Of a stretch of DNA of 64,000 nt, positions 29,997-33,925 are shown one piece after another (position 1 is the stretch's first letter; the number at the start of each line of letters is the position of its first letter). This DNA is from Candidatus Borrarchaeum weybense (GTDB taxonomy: Archaea > Asgardarchaeota > Sifarchaeia > Borrarchaeales > Borrarchaeaceae), in contig JAHQJS010000003.1 in NCBI GenBank assembly GCA_019057385.1, forward strand, positions 1 through 64,000. Direction: 5' to 3'. Made by a program: the position numbers and the translations under genes. The notes below the pieces were generated by a model that worked only from the letters and a program-made list of their open reading frames with translations, was not told the origin of the DNA and did not search any database.

Positions 29997-31403
29997 TTGA
30001 GAAAGAGCGAGGATGAGAAGATATTGTGTGCCTCAAAAACGAGAAAAGAATATCGAATTAAAATAGTCGTTGCTGGAGACGGGGGAGTAGGCAAAACAAG
30101 CTTATTGAATCGATATGTTTCAGACACATTTTTAACAGCAATGAAGATGACTATTGGCACAGACTTCTTTTCTAAAGTTATGGAAAGAGATAATAGTGTA
30201 GTTAAACTTCAACTGTGGGATTTTGGTGGTGAAAAACGGTTTCGCTTCCTTCTTCCTGGTTATTGCAAGGGCGCCCGTGGCGTGTTATTGGCATTTGACC
30301 TGAATGATTTTACGACATTAATGAGTTTAGATGAATGGATCCAGATTGTTAAGGAAAACACAACAGATCCTAAAATACTTCTTGTGGGAACTAAAGTAGA
30401 TATCGCGGGAGGAGTCACGGAAGAGGAATTCATTAGAGATTTTTGTGAAAAGCATAATATACATGAATTCATCCCAACAAGCTCAAAAACTGGAGAAAAC
30501 GTGGATTTTGTCTTCCAAGAATTAGTTGATCGAATCCTCGCGCCTTTAATTCCTGAAATTCCTCTTGTACCTATTACTCCACCTGAGATCCTTGAACCTA
30601 CTACCCCTCTGGAAGCCCCCGAACCTATTACTCCACCTGAGATCCTTGAACCTACTACCCCTCTGGAAGCCCCCGAACCTATTACTCCACCTGAGATCCC
30701 CGAACCTATCGCTCCACCTGAAATCTCTAAGCCCATTATCCCACCTGAAATACCCGAACCTATCACTACTCCACCTGAGATCCCCGAACCTATCGCTCCA
30801 CCTGAGATACCTAAGCCCATTATCCCACCTGAAATACCCGAACCTATCACTACTCCACCTGAGATCCCCGAACCTATTATCCCATCTGAAGTCTCTGAAC
30901 CTACCCCTCCACCTGAGATACCTAAGCCTATTATCCCACCTAAGATCCCCGAACCCACCCCTCCACCTGTAATACCTGAACCTACTCCTCCACCCGAGAT
31001 CCCTGAGCCCATTACACCACGTGTAATTCCTGAACCTACCCCTCCACCTGAGATACCTAAGCCTATTATCCCACCTGAAATCCCCGAATCTATCCCTGTC
31101 CCAATTCTATCGGATATAGAATTTACCCTTGAACCTGGTGAAAACAAAGATTGGAAAATCAAACTTTATGTATTATCAAGAGGTGGGTTTGGTCTTCGTG
31201 CACTTAAATTTCTAAAGAATCAGTCTATTGAATTTGAGTATGTATTTGTAGACGAGTTAGACGAAAAGGTTGCAAATGAATTACGTGGAATATTGAAAGA
31301 GAAATATGGCCGACATGTTTCCTATCCTTTCCTTATTATTGATGACAAAAAGTGCTTAGTTGGTTTTGACGAAACTGAATACTATTCAATTTTTGGCAAG
31401 TAA
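29997..31403 (+). CDS. Rab/Ras-like small GTPase fused through a Pro-rich repeat linker to a glutaredoxin-like domain lacking CxxC
   Basis: G1 GDGGVGKT, G2 TIG, G3 WDFGG, G4 TKVD, G5 SSK; about 180-aa PEP repeats; C-terminal LYVLSRGGFGLRALKFL...VSYPFLII...VGFD. Confidence 0.88.
   Translation: MRKSEDEKILCASKTRKEYRIKIVVAGDGGVGKTSLLNRYVSDTFLTAMKMTIGTDFFSKVMERDNSVVKLQLWDFGGEKRFRFLLPGYCKGARGVLLAFDLNDFTTLMSLDEWIQIVKENTTDPKILLVGTKVDIAGGVTEEEFIRDFCEKHNIHEFIPTSSKTGENVDFVFQELVDRILAPLIPEIPLVPITPPEILEPTTPLEAPEPITPPEILEPTTPLEAPEPITPPEIPEPIAPPEISKPIIPPEIPEPITTPPEIPEPIAPPEIPKPIIPPEIPEPITTPPEIPEPIIPSEVSEPTPPPEIPKPIIPPKIPEPTPPPVIPEPTPPPEIPEPITPRVIPEPTPPPEIPKPIIPPEIPESIPVPILSDIEFTLEPGENKDWKIKLYVLSRGGFGLRALKFLKNQSIEFEYVFVDELDEKVANELRGILKEKYGRHVSYPFLIIDDKKCLVGFDETEYYSIFGK
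30570..31100 (+). repeat. Coding Pro/Glu/Ile-rich degenerate tandem repeats (about 27-bp period, with 54-bp and 84-bp higher-order duplications)
   Basis: PITPPEILEPTTPLEAPE x2; PEPIAPPEI(S/P)KPIIPPEIPEPITTPPEI x2. Confidence 0.9.
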
Positions 31404-31449
31404 TAAGCAACTAAAATAGATTTTTATTTAACACAAGTACATATTTTGA

Positions 31450-31800
31450 ATGGTGAGTGTTTTGACTGTATCCCAAAAGGAAAAAAATATTGAAGATGCA
31501 AAACTATTTGCTAAAATGACTGCTAAACATCAAGGATGGGAGTTAAATCACGATAAAGAACTTAACGAGTTGCTCTTTGAAGGTCTAACTACTAATTGGA
31601 ATCGATATGGATATTTTGCCTGTCCTTGTCGACTTGCCGATGGAGTTAGAGAAGAAGATAAGGATATTATCTGCCCTTGTGAGTATGCTAAACCTGATCT
31701 TGAAGAATATGGGCATTGTTATTGCGGTTTATATTTGACAAAAGAGTTTTTTGCGTCTGGCAAGCAATCTAAATATATCCCAGATCGCCGCCCTGAATAA
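31450..31800 (+). CDS. Ferredoxin:thioredoxin reductase catalytic-subunit family protein
   Basis: CPCR, ICPC, CYCGLY motifs. Confidence 0.92.
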   Translation: MVSVLTVSQKEKNIEDAKLFAKMTAKHQGWELNHDKELNELLFEGLTTNWNRYGYFACPCRLADGVREEDKDIICPCEYAKPDLEEYGHCYCGLYLTKEFFASGKQSKYIPDRRPE

Positions 31801-31815
31801 GTCCCTTTTGTACGA

Positions 31816-32184
31816 TTACTTGTTTGCCATTGTAAATTCTTCGACTGTTGGAAATTCAAAAGCTGATGCAAAATAAGTAGTTACTAGCTCCTCAAGGATC
31901 TCGGAGTCGTAGCTCCCACACACTCTCAAAAAGTCGGGAAAAATAACTGTTGGGCAGGCCACGATATCATGTTTCTCAGCTACCTCAGGCGTTTTTAAAA
32001 CGTCTATTTTAATCATTTTTATTGGCAACATTTTCCTATCTATAACTTCCAAAAGACATTGTTCCATTTTAGGACAAGGGCCGCATAAGGGGGAGGTAAA
32101 AAAGAAAATCTCCAGAAATGAATCGTAGTTATTACTTGAATCATGATTATGGCTTTTGATTTTTTCTTCATGAATGTTAGACAT
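31816..32184 (-). CDS. Thioredoxin-like protein (CGPC)
   Basis: FFTSPLCGPC...IDVLKTPEVAEKHDIVACPT. Confidence 0.85.
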   Translation of the reverse strand: MSNIHEEKIKSHNHDSSNNYDSFLEIFFFTSPLCGPCPKMEQCLLEVIDRKMLPIKMIKIDVLKTPEVAEKHDIVACPTVIFPDFLRVCGSYDSEILEELVTTYFASAFEFPTVEEFTMANK

Positions 32185-32539
32185 GACTTACACCACCAAT
32201 AGAAGTCATAGATGATTGATGTTTAAATTCTGAAGATGAGTAAAGCTTTACCAACTCGTCTAGCTCTTCTTCACAATTTCCATAGATTTTCATAAAATTT
32301 CGGAAAATTAGTGTAGGACATGCTACTATATTATGTTCTTCCGCTGCCTCAGGAGCTCTTAAAACATCTATTTTTGTTACTTTTATAGGCAATTCTCTTT
32401 GCTCAATTGCCTTTAGAAGTCGCCTCTCTAGTTTAGGTTGATGACTAGTAGGCGAAGTGAAGAACAGAATTTCTAGATTCGGATCTTGATTATGATTTTC
32501 ATACTCTGCTAGATTGTTCGACATTTTTAACCCCACCAA
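32177..32539 (-). CDS. Thioredoxin/KaiB-like protein lacking CxxC (paralogue of the adjacent gene)
   Basis: FFTSPTSHQPKLE...IDVLRAPEAAEEHNIVACPTLIF. Confidence 0.78.
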   Translation of the reverse strand: MVGLKMSNNLAEYENHNQDPNLEILFFTSPTSHQPKLERRLLKAIEQRELPIKVTKIDVLRAPEAAEEHNIVACPTLIFRNFMKIYGNCEEELDELVKLYSSSEFKHQSSMTSIGGVSHV

Positions 32540-33152
32540 AACTCATTTCTCGGGCGATAACTCGCCGAATTAACTCTTTAAAGACAAAATCCACGTTTTT
32601 TCCTGTTTTGGAACTTGTTGGTATGTATTCGTCGATTTCGTTTTGTATACAAAACTCTTTAATAATTTCTTCATCCAAAAGATTTGTATTGTCTGCTTTC
32701 GTTCCAACAAGAATTGTTACGGGATTTTCGGTATTCCCCCTGATAAGTTGTAGCCATTCCTTAACACTTAGTAACGTGGAAAAATCTGATAGGTCAAAGG
32801 CCAATAACACGCCACTGGCGCCGATACAATAATCCGGCAAAATGAATCTAAATCGTGGCTCGCCTCCAAAATCCCATATTTGAATTTTTATTTTATGCTC
32901 CTTGAAATCACAGGCTTGACTGAAAAAGTCTGAACCAACTGTTAAACTCATGCTTTCAATAAAGTCATTTGAGATGTATCTGTTTAGTAAACTTGTTTTA
33001 CCTACTCCCCCGTCACCTGCGACAATTATTTTCATGCGATTATATTCCGTTTTCATTTTCGGACACTCTTCCAAAATAGTTTTCTCACCGTTTTCAATGC
33101 CAACGATGTTTAATGGGTTGTACAAAGACATTGTCGAAACTTTTTTCACCAC
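32499..33152 (-). CDS. Rab/Ras-like small GTPase
   Basis: GDGGVGKT, TVG, WDFGG, TKAD, SSKTG. Confidence 0.92.
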   Translation of the reverse strand: MVKKVSTMSLYNPLNIVGIENGEKTILEECPKMKTEYNRMKIIVAGDGGVGKTSLLNRYISNDFIESMSLTVGSDFFSQACDFKEHKIKIQIWDFGGEPRFRFILPDYCIGASGVLLAFDLSDFSTLLSVKEWLQLIRGNTENPVTILVGTKADNTNLLDEEIIKEFCIQNEIDEYIPTSSKTGKNVDFVFKELIRRVIAREMSFGGVKNVEQSSRV

Positions 33153-33156
33153 CTAG

Positions 33157-33258
33157 TCAGAAGGGAACAGGAAAAACATCTTCTTTGTAGAAGAGAAAAC
33201 GCTTTGTGTGATCTCTTTTATTCTCATCTATTTTTTTACTTAAATCATTCATTTCCAT
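33157..33258 (-). CDS. Putative 33-aa small protein
   Basis: SD AAGGAGA then ATG; MEMNDLSKKIDENKRDHTKRFLFYKEDVFPVPF*; fills the gap in the operon. Confidence 0.45.
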   Translation of the reverse strand: MEMNDLSKKIDENKRDHTKRFLFYKEDVFPVPF

Positions 33259-33291
33259 CTTGCTATCTCCTTTGATTCGTTCGTTTCCCAG

Positions 33292-33633
33292 TTATGAAGC
33301 GAGGAAAAGTGTTGTAGCATCGGATGTCAAAAGAGCTTTCTCATTTCTTTGCATCAAATCGAGGAGCTTCGTCCTGTCAAGGACTCCTGACAAGAAAGCC
33401 TCTACACCAACGAAAATATCTGCGATTGCTGTCATAAATTGCGAAAACAGTTGATAATCACGCGGTAGTACTTGTTTCGCATCTACGACTTCCCAGAACC
33501 TGTAGATGTATTCTTTTAACGGATTTAAAAGGTTTTTAAGATATATATCTGCATATTTTCCGTCTTCCTTGAAACCAACTTCCACGATTTTTCCAAACAC
33601 GTTTTTAAGCACATCTTGTATATCCCATTCCAT
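33292..33633 (-). CDS. Hypothetical helical protein
   Basis: ATG 33633 after GGGGTGA SD; 113 aa. Confidence 0.65.
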   Translation of the reverse strand: MEWDIQDVLKNVFGKIVEVGFKEDGKYADIYLKNLLNPLKEYIYRFWEVVDAKQVLPRDYQLFSQFMTAIADIFVGVEAFLSGVLDRTKLLDLMQRNEKALLTSDATTLFLAS

Positions 33634-33925
33634 GCGCGTCACCCCAGCAAATTTTGATTTTTTGGTTGCCGCGATCGAAATTTTTTTGAAGAAAAAATTT
33701 TTTCATCGCGAAGCCAATCAAAAGAAGAAACGCATCAAACCTTGATAAATTCTGTCCCAATCTTTTGTTTTCTGTGCGGAGAAGATGCGTCTGCAATTCT
33801 TAACATTAATAGGTAATACGGTAATGTTCCCAAAATTGCATATTCATTTTACAAAATCACAAAAAGCCTATGACATGTTTATGAGTTTGGAAAAATTGAG
33901 TAAAAATCATAGAGCGAAAAAACAA

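Follow-up and report, generated by a model that had tools for sequence, protein, structure and literature searches.

Between positions 29997 and 33633 of the window, by which we mean the whole 64,000-nucleotide stretch of Candidatus Borrarchaeum weybense DNA analysed here, lie seven genes in two convergent units. The layout is as described in the initial annotation: ORF calling bore out all seven genes at their positions, and dN/dS values indicate purifying selection on every one. The plus strand carries a 468-aa ORF (29997–31403) for a fusion of a Rab-like G domain (GTPase-1), a Pro/Glu-rich spacer and a Cys-less glutaredoxin-like (Grx-like) domain, followed by a 116-aa FeThRed_B ORF (31450–31800) for a predicted ferredoxin:thioredoxin reductase (FTR) catalytic subunit, FTR-B. 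The minus strand carries a five-gene operon. Its first gene encodes an orphan four-helix-bundle protein (33292–33633; 113 aa from a conserved ATG at 33633, the longest ORF being 116 aa at 33292–33642). It is followed by a 33-aa micropeptide with a conserved C-terminal FPVPF motif (33157–33258), the Rab-like GTPase-2 of the DFGGE subfamily (32499–33152; 217-aa ORF), a Cys-less thioredoxin (Trx) paralogue (32177–32539; 120-aa ORF, probably starting at the ATG at 32524) and finally an MJ0307-like CGPC thioredoxin (31816–32184; 122-aa ORF).

The minus-strand genes are tightly packed, with spacings of −26, −8, +4 and +33 nt. The Cys-less Trx gene shares 26 nt with the GTPase-2 gene and 8 nt with that of the CGPC Trx, and a 4-nt gap separates the end of the peptide ORF from GTPase-2. 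The CGPC Trx and FTR-B genes are convergent, their stop codons lying 15 nt apart.

The four-helix protein matched no Pfam or NCBIfam family in profile searches; its model shows four helices (pLDDT 70), and it belongs to a narrow family of 15 clusters with dN/dS of 0.08–0.13. The 33-aa peptide is conserved in 6 of 6 loci (dN/dS 0.03–0.35), and in two further settings a helical paralogue is followed by a peptide paralogue with the same C-terminal ending. We found a second paralogous module in G004, composed of helical, peptide, Trx-like and GTPase genes with no FTR nearby, which suggests that GTPase, helical protein, peptide and Trx-fold protein make up the core unit. Since this second module lacks both FTR and the candidate Cys residues considered below, the core link between GTPase and Trx-fold protein needs no FTR. 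Independently of one another, GTPases co-occur with Trx-fold or helical genes in the G004 module, in a Thorarchaeal cluster and in a TrmB-GTPase operon, the last of which adjoins a distant helical homologue.

Each Borrarchaeum-type contig that was found carries the whole arrangement (~10 protein clusters), which is thus not unique to this genome. A search of Asgard relatives did not find it outside the genus Candidatus Borrarchaeum. The neighbourhood as a whole is syntenic within the genus, which makes conserved gene order weak evidence. For a GTPase to lie beside a Trx-fold locus is nothing unusual by itself in this genome (P ~0.11 under random placement); the weight rests on the fusion and on the overlapping genes. 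Profile searches showed the upstream MoxR (AAA_5) and VWA domains to be genuine. Their proposed role in remodelling the complex found no backing beyond whole-neighbourhood synteny in close relatives: they are missing from the second module, and none occurs near the GTPase/Trx genes of the Thorarchaeal and TrmB-GTPase (f20) contexts.

Two sister Rab-like GTPases

Both GTPases match the Ras family (PF00071; E 6e-36 and 2e-34 in profile searches), and both contain GDGGVGKT, the switch-I Thr, DxxG, TKxD and SSK. The G domain of GTPase-1 spans residues ~19–185 (30051–30551, plus strand) and has GDGGVGKTS as G1, DFGGE as G3, TKVD as G4 and SSK as G5; the best solved matches of GTPase-2 are Rab1, Rab35 and Ypt. 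The true start of GTPase-1 is probably the TTG at 30024, which would give an N-terminus of MCAS; the G001 orthologue begins with ATG where the window has this TTG. The two proteins are 58% identical across 170 residues, alignment recovers in both the near-identical blocks that had been quoted for them, and, of the genome's 31 or more paralogues, each is the nearest to the other.

In both GTPases the catalytic Gln after DxxG (Ras Q61/Rab1 Q67) is replaced by Glu, giving DFGGE, and six more of the genome's paralogues have this Glu as well. The C-terminal prenylatable Cys of eukaryotic Rabs is absent: the C-terminus of GTPase-2 contains no Cys, and GTPase-1 runs into the spacer. The same absence has been reported for other Asgard Rabs (PMC10933270).

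Cys-less redoxins and the FTR-B slot

The Pro/Glu/Ile-rich spacer of GTPase-1 is encoded by a tandem repeat at 30569–31094 on the plus strand (27-nt unit, ~19 copies; 27/81-nt repeat). It is 150–200 aa long, differs in length among relatives and has a dN/dS of 0.18–0.33. The fusion is found in 10 clusters from independent samples, plus G004, with proteins of 376–454 aa in 9 other clusters; it is split in G001 and G003 solely by assembly breaks inside the repeat.

The Cys-less Grx-like domain (31137–31400, plus strand) matches the methanoredoxin-type glutaredoxins 5CAX (E 1.5e-8) and 3NZN (E 8e-8). It scores 17.5 bits in Pfam, under the cut-off of 22.9, but CxxC Grx-like proteins encoded by other Asgard genomes can be aligned with it from end to end. 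By tblastn it is 24–45% identical to the FTR-adjacent Grx-like proteins of other families and 19% identical to the Grx–FTR fusion of G029. Its STCxxC motif has become SRGGFG, and the cis-Pro (YP) is retained. All 5 orthologues compared have SRGGFG instead of STCGFC, both Cys being Gly. Apart from this TC..C to RG..G change the domain is conserved (dN/dS 0.20–0.26), it keeps the surface residues round the cis-Pro loop and round what was once the active site, and in the tree the clade of Cys-less domains sits on a short stem branch. The active-site/cis-Pro face is where redoxins dock on reductases, as in FTR–Trx complexes. Three live Grx-like genes are retained elsewhere in the genome and are kept in the genus.

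FTR-B is the sole copy in the genome and, judged by its sequence, is predicted to belong to the single-subunit FDR (FTR-like ferredoxin:disulfide reductase) type of FTR catalytic subunits. It matches PF02943 at 87.5 bits (cut-off 22; E 8e-25) and 4TPU at E 1.9e-27, and its CPC...CPC...CYC pattern is complete, all six cluster/disulfide Cys aligning with those of 4TPU. A Grx-like gene lies directly upstream in 16 of the 20 FTR-B loci fetched. Thirteen of these 16 are outside the genus, and STCxxC is present in every one (13/13); one of the 13 is a Grx–FTR fusion, and P0014 is another such fusion. The Grx-like/FTR-B pair is therefore widespread, as the initial annotation held, occurring at FTR-B loci of other Asgard families. 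At this locus the Cys-less Grx domain occupies the slot that a separate or FTR-fused CxxC partner fills in those families.

The CGPC Trx matches PF00085 at 33.4 bits (cut-off 23.5), has its CGPC active site and closes the GTPase-2 operon at every one of the 6 loci compared. The Cys-less Trx falls under the Pfam cut-off, is 51% identical to its CGPC paralogue and matches 1FO5 at E 2.6e-4. Its active site reads TSHQP, with a one-residue deletion, and the Cys before the cis-Pro (ACPT) is retained. CxxC is lost in 8 of 8 orthologous or duplicate copies, of which relatives carry one or two. With a dN/dS of 0.06–0.13, the Cys-less Trx is under tighter constraint than the live CGPC Trx. Both copies that had been called redox-dead have thus lost CxxC, and the selection on them marks them as functional proteins. 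KaiB was considered as an identity within this Trx subfamily and rejected: the PF07689 score (25.8 bits) lies below the cut-off of 27, the signal comes from a shared (A)xPTL stretch, and the locus has no KaiC-type gene.

Relation to known systems

The nearest known system is that of FDR and its Grx-like partners in anaerobes (Methanosarcina acetivorans FDR, 4TPU; methanoredoxin, 5CAX; PMC7278568). FTR-B is most similar to 4TPU, with which it shares all cluster/disulfide Cys. A methanoredoxin-type gene lies directly upstream here too, as in the 13 loci of other Asgard families. Unlike in FDR/Grx-like systems, the upstream domain here lacks both active-site Cys and forms the C-terminal part of a Rab-like GTPase, and FTR-B is without the rubredoxin extension.

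With Asgard Rab-like GTPases such as Thor-Rab, the present pair has in common the Rab-like G domain and a large paralogous family (PMC10933270; 10.1101/2020.10.19.343400). It differs from them in having Glu for the catalytic Gln, and neither source describes a GTPase–Grx architecture. In contrast to the Asgard roadblock/longin GTPases, those of this locus are partnered by Trx-fold proteins together with one four-helix protein and one micropeptide, and the locus contains no roadblock, longin or TRAPP domain. A Thorarchaeal cluster (L077–L082) has a Rab-like GTPase divergent from a series of Roadblock, Trx (CxxC) and two KaiC-type ATPase genes, and so places the same small-Trx subfamily (30–39% identity) beside a Rab-like GTPase module. 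Unlike the Cys-less Trx, the Thorarchaeal Trx is redox-competent and is partnered by Roadblock and KaiC-type ATPases. That cluster is without the fusion, helical protein or peptide, and no FTR-B was found in its family.

Inactive Trx-fold adaptors are known in KaiB, the Trx-like domain of plant TTL scaffolds (10.1101/351056) and the UAS domain of UBXN7 (PMC10080908), all CxxC-less, conserved and partner-binding. The dead copies here differ from these in being recent paralogues of live redoxins beside a reductase, and have no sequence-level membership in any of the three. In agreement with the initial annotation, which knew of no described system, a literature search gave no published description of a GTPase/dead-redoxin/FTR arrangement.

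Redoxin domains as possible docking adaptors

Our preferred reading, to which we give a probability of roughly 40%, is that of a genus-specific module in which two sister GTPases, each with a dead Trx-fold partner, stand around the sole FTR-B, the dead redoxin domains being adaptors through which the GTPases dock on, and are coupled to, the FTR/Trx system. The recurrent fusion, the FTR slot, the conservation of the dead domain outside its active site, the operon packing, the retention of live partners, the tighter constraint on the dead Trx than on the live one and the independent co-occurrences support such a module. Weighing against it are the confinement to one syntenic genus, the chance level of adjacency, the second module with neither FTR nor candidate Cys, a TnpB element that one relative tolerates between the fusion gene and FTR-B, and the absence of NKCD. 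Mechanistically, the Cys-less Grx domain would still dock on FTR-B as a non-reducible pseudo-substrate and would either tether GTPase-1 to the reductase or compete at its docking site. FTR-B would reduce the CGPC Trx, the three live Grx-like paralogues or both, and the Cys-less Trx, as an adaptor, may link GTPase-2 either to the live Trx or to the targets of that Trx. The helical protein and peptide may regulate the GTPases or serve as their effectors. Taken together, these links would tie the redox state of ferredoxin and thiols to the GTP/GDP state of both switches, in either direction. Direct reduction of Cys on the GTPases is possible and is the least supported step. The fully specified version is unlikely to hold as a whole: there, the Cys-less Grx is a pseudo-substrate on FTR-B, the Cys-less Trx plays the like part between GTPase-2 and the CGPC Trx, and ferredoxin reduction is read out as GTP/GDP state or localisation.

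A somewhat unlikely alternative is that the Cys-less Grx and Trx are neofunctionalised, plain binding modules (effector, GDI-like or KaiB-like) with no redox role. The adjacency of FTR-B would then be a relic of fusion to a pre-existing Grx-like gene, and FTR-B would serve the live Grx-like proteins and Trx independently. Strong purifying selection after loss of both catalytic Cys argues for this, as does the link of Trx-fold protein to GTPase without FTR, seen in the second module and again in the Thorarchaeal cluster. It also draws on a TnpB element tolerated between the fusion gene and FTR-B in one relative, on an A/T-rich promoter-like stretch 20–28 nt upstream of the FTR-B ATG that FTR-B appears to own, and on the weak KaiB-profile signals of this Trx subfamily. 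Against it, the dead Grx domain keeps the reductase-docking face, the live CGPC Trx is kept throughout the operons compared, and the locus offers no KaiC-type partner.

The initial annotation had proposed a chain from ferredoxin through FTR-B and the CGPC Trx to regulatory Cys on the GTPases (YC in switch II, FC in helix 4) that would gate the GTP cycle. The two Cys it named show no variation among the 10 orthologues of both GTPases, a complete Fd–FTR–Trx chain is encoded alongside, and Cys-based redox control is established for eukaryotic Ras, Rap and some Rab proteins (Cys118 in the NKCD motif, a Cys-containing G4; PMC6695279), with which the locus shares the concept of thiol modulation. The FC Cys, among at least 31 paralogues, is essentially confined to these two GTPases and one distant paralogue. 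However, the FC Cys also occurs in a stand-alone G003 paralogue, and the YC Cys is common to eight DFGGE-type paralogues and one Gln-retaining paralogue (C4_1157854), most of them without Trx neighbours. In the second-module GTPase the corresponding residues are YS and FI. The candidate Cys lie elsewhere than in the eukaryotic proteins and are partly subfamily traits; G4 reads TKAD and TKVD, NKCD being absent from both GTPases, and the eukaryotic GTPases have no dedicated reductase genetically linked to them. YC (end of helix 2) and FC would be parted by helix 3, as judged from the Ras fold, which makes an intramolecular disulfide unlikely. The Cys-switch claim is weakened by these comparisons, and we consider the chain improbable.

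It is likewise quite doubtful that a GTPase operon lies beside a Grx–FTR unit by chance in a GTPase-rich genome and that the fusion arose as an accident of this lineage with little consequence for function: the chance level of adjacency, the restriction to one genus with extended synteny, and the large, extensively shuffled Asgard GTPase families (10.1101/2020.10.19.343400) would allow it, but purifying selection acts on fusion, spacer and dead domain alike across lineages close to saturation at synonymous sites, each sister GTPase is paired with a dead Trx-fold protein, genes overlap, and the paralogous module retains the same four components.

If the fully specified version, unlikely as it is, were correct, the locus would encode a dedicated redox-to-small-GTPase pathway in archaeal relatives of eukaryotes, and would be one case of a wider, repeatedly evolved Asgard pairing of Rab-like GTPases with Trx-fold partners. 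The arrangement appears to be undescribed and may tie GTPase signalling to the redox state of the cell.

The fusion gene, its reductase neighbour and the minus-strand operon

ORF calling on both strands recovered every reading frame of the initial annotation and confirmed the arrangement it had described. The first plus-strand gene (29997–31403) encodes a 468-residue fusion of a Ras-family G domain (GTPase-1; E 6e-36), a Pro/Glu/Ile-rich spacer specified by a 27/81-nt tandem repeat (30569–31094, plus strand) and a C-terminal domain of 88 residues. The gene for a 116-residue ferredoxin:thioredoxin reductase catalytic subunit (FTR-B; 31450–31800, plus strand; PF02943, 87.5 bits) lies 46 nt 3' of it. 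The minus strand carries, in order, genes for a helical protein without known family (113/116 residues; 33292–33633), a 33-residue peptide (33157–33258), a second Ras-family GTPase of 217 residues (GTPase-2; 32499–33152), a thioredoxin-fold protein of 120 residues without CxxC (32177–32539) and a CGPC thioredoxin of 122 residues (31816–32184). The successive spacings of +33, +4, −26 and −8 nt indicate one operon with coupled translation. The FTR-B and CGPC thioredoxin genes are convergent with 15 nt between their stop codons, no hairpin terminator was found between them (31798–31818), and antisense overlap of their transcripts is probable. The likely start of the fusion protein is a TTG codon at 30024, giving the N-terminus Met-Cys-Ala-Ser (30024–30035); the orthologue in G001, another Borrarchaeum genome, has ATG at this position. 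The N-terminal cysteine is kept in all fusion orthologues, and it is possible that it is exposed.

The genome comprises 4.18 Mb in 8 contigs, and its closest named relative is the Asgard archaeon Candidatus Borrarchaeum yapensis Yap2000.bin9.141, described in a preprint (10.1101/2020.10.19.343400). We found the GTPase–glutaredoxin fusion in nine further protein clusters from JGI, ENA and NCBI data (376–454 residues, glutaredoxin part 76–97% identical). Every contig examined carries the full set of fusion, FTR-B, CGPC thioredoxin, one or two dead thioredoxin copies, GTPase-2, peptide and helical protein. The assemblies of G001 and of a further Borrarchaeum genome, G003, are broken within the Pro-rich repeat; one G001 contig (C175) ends in the repeat after a G domain and another (C88) starts in it. 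Synteny among Borrarchaeum contigs is extended, with arginase, K+ channel and DAO genes on one side and VWA, MoxR, TFE and Trm56 genes on the other, so that conserved gene order in this clade is weak evidence by itself. The proposal that MoxR/VWA may remodel the complex finds no association past this synteny. On the contig of fusion cluster P0016 (JGI sample 3300042731), a 427-residue IS605 OrfB/TnpB gene sits between the fusion and FTR-B, indicating that co-transcription of the two genes is not required.

Outside the genus, no comparable arrangement was found beside FTR-B in the surroundings of this gene in 20 genomes. Rosetta-stone searches returned long proteins with this glutaredoxin domain or this G domain from the Borrarchaeum fusion clade only, and the helical family is essentially genus-restricted. 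The adjacency of a GTPase to a thioredoxin-fold locus is unimpressive when taken alone (P about 0.11).

Redox-dead domains beside the reductase and the live thioredoxin

The C-terminal domain of the fusion falls under the Pfam glutaredoxin cut-off. It matches methanoredoxin-type glutaredoxins (5CAX, E 1.5e-8; 3NZN, E 8e-8) and aligns end to end with glutaredoxin-like proteins from other Asgard genomes. FTR-B, a single-copy gene in this genome, has 4TPU, an archaeal ferredoxin:disulfide reductase, as its nearest match and retains all cluster and disulfide cysteines; archaeal enzymes of this kind and glutaredoxin-like proteins have been reviewed (PMC7278568). Comparison of FTR-B neighbourhoods in 20 genomes of the phylum revealed 13 loci outside the genus with a glutaredoxin-like gene containing STCxxC directly upstream on the same strand. 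In the Asgard genome G029 the two form a single protein of 236 residues, and cluster P0014 is another such fusion. The solved structure 7PWE was considered as a glutaredoxin–FTR fusion and set aside, as its N-terminal part gave no sequence match to the glutaredoxin domain.

In the Borrarchaeum genomes, it is the C-terminal domain of the fusion protein that fills the slot upstream of FTR-B, with SRGGFG at its active site. Substitutions have removed the Thr-Cys and the second cysteine but left the intervening and flanking residues, and the cis-proline, in place. The site usually taken by the partner of FTR-B thus now contains a redox-dead version joined to a GTPase. The tree unites the dead domains in a single clade (support 98/97) with a short stem, placed among FTR-adjacent sequences and live paralogues, a topology compatible both with an origin in place and with an origin from one of three live paralogues. 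These three are tandem genes at a separate site of the genome (C7:737770–738875) and are kept in two other Borrarchaeum genomes (G004 and G002). A conventional cluster on contig C5 (77401–80158; L116) groups a thioredoxin reductase-like flavoprotein, a FIST-domain protein and a CGLC thioredoxin, and looks like a housekeeping thioredoxin system with a sensor-type domain in its middle. Together with the three live glutaredoxin-like genes, this cluster indicates that redox-competent partners have not been lost from the organism.

The dead and live thioredoxins are paralogues of the small MJ0307 type with 51% identity. An exhaustive profile search of the dead-thioredoxin family gave 23 representatives and no GTPase fusion. 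Complex prediction for GTPase-2 with the Cys-less thioredoxin, using two orthologue alignments (A2 and A3), scored 0.01, which speaks neither for nor against binding. A 302-residue protein from the sister family in this class (L074:720–1628; G005:C159) joins a CPFC thioredoxin of this subfamily to a C-terminal domain of ~170 residues; this domain contains cysteines, belongs to no recognised family and is not a GTPase. Three Ras-family proteins of 245–254 residues in G029 were also rejected as GTPase–thioredoxin fusions, since they have charged or coiled-coil tails and no thioredoxin domain.

The helical protein is modelled as a four-helix bundle (pLDDT 70). It has no match in Pfam, NCBIfam or Atlas features, and the neighbours that Foldseek against the PDB and an Atlas shape search brought up were all generic four-helix bundles, none of them informative, so that its function is not readable from its fold. 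The C-terminal half of the 33-residue peptide is invariant and ends in FPVPF.

Against orthologues with synonymous sites near saturation (dS about 1), dN/dS was 0.03–0.35 for all parts of the locus. The dead thioredoxin (0.06–0.13) is under stronger constraint than the live one (0.21–0.25); the dead glutaredoxin domain gave 0.20–0.26 and the spacer 0.18–0.33. These values, with the invariant half of the peptide, mark the dead domains, and likewise the peptide, as functional.

Related modules and the proposed cysteine switch

A second, FTR-free paralogous module (L097:3703–5112, corresponding to G004:C40:35702–37111) is present on 21 near-identical contigs. It comprises a helical protein with 49% identity, a 40-residue peptide ending in ESFPVPF, a thioredoxin-like gene with LSSCC in place of CxxC and a DFGGE-type GTPase. 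The last two have no canonical start codons for full N-termini, and this copy may therefore be decaying. At L114, a locus of a more distant lineage, a helical protein is accompanied by a 32-residue peptide ending in VYPVPF, with no GTPase in the 580 nt after the peptide. In the f20 family, a distant helical homologue (E about 1e-5; L104:1450–1761, L105:1411–1722 and L106:1450–1761) is divergent from an operon of overlapping genes for a TrmB-like regulator and a small GTPase. In the f7 family, five genomes of four genera (L077, L078, L080, L081 and L082; for example L080:302–3269) have a Roadblock/LC7, small thioredoxin (CGFC or CAFC, same subfamily), KaiC, KaiC operon divergent from a Rab-like GTPase. 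The thioredoxin of this cluster gives a weak KaiB signal, both KaiC-type genes encode ATPases, and no FTR-B was found in the family in six genomes searched. Taken together, these contexts suggest that the evolutionary core is the helical protein with the peptide, commonly joined by a GTPase and a thioredoxin-fold protein, and that the tie to FTR is peculiar to the fused glutaredoxin domain. A family of small Cys-containing proteins was dropped as a GTPase neighbour, with one of six genome members near a GTPase.

GTPase-1 and GTPase-2 share 58% identity, and of the genome's paralogues, which number at least 31, each is closest to the other. Among solved structures, these Rab-like proteins match Rab1, Rab35 and Ypt best (E about 1e-27). 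They belong to a subfamily of eight on contigs C3, C4, C6 and C7 (for example C6:731336–731872, C4:855105–855650 and C4:931257–933338), with Glu for the catalytic Gln (DFGGE), TKxD in both (TKxD/SKxD across the subfamily) instead of NKxD at G4, and YC.GA at the YYRGA-equivalent motif.

The initial annotation had electrons passing from ferredoxin through FTR and thioredoxin to cysteine switches on the GTPases, with the dead domains as scaffolds. This interpretation is borne out in part; the switch is weakly supported. The YC cysteine is a subfamily trait, common to the eight DFGGE-type paralogues and one Gln-retaining paralogue, most of them without a nearby thioredoxin. The FC cysteine is invariant in both GTPases and also occurs in one stand-alone paralogue; the GTPase of the second module has YSAGA and AFIERY, and thus neither cysteine. 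The redox motif NKCD is absent from the GTPases. The YC and FC positions are presumably separated by helix 3 of the Ras fold, and a disulfide linking the two therefore seems improbable. It is plausible that the dead domains act as docking or scaffold adaptors: they are conserved, and one of them occupies the slot of the reductase partner.

Novelty and meaning for Asgard GTPases

The components of the locus (GTPase, FTR and redoxins) are of known kinds; the fusion and the operon that unite them are undescribed and confined to one genus. Full-text literature searches bore out the view that no such system has been described, returning no paper that ties Asgard small GTPases to thioredoxin or glutaredoxin. 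In the main surveys of small GTPases, Asgard and prokaryotic (PMC10933270 and preprint 10.1101/2020.10.19.343400 among them), the partners listed are roadblock, longin, TRAPP and DENN, with redoxins absent. Partners of the Asgard proteins are hard to assign because their genes are rarely in operons (PMC10933270).

The function and regulation of Asgard small GTPases are largely obscure, and the fusion and the tight operon point to concrete candidate partners for two Rab-like members: a pseudo-glutaredoxin next to the reductase of its ancestors, two thioredoxins of which one is dead and one live, a four-helix protein and a conserved micropeptide. Should the dead domains not dock, the locus would be a case of domain shuffling limited to one lineage, and of modest interest. 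If the dead redoxins do dock on FTR or thioredoxin, the locus would offer the first example from a prokaryote of a small-GTPase switch coupled to a defined thiol-redox system, and a clear instance of redox enzymes that have become signalling adaptors.
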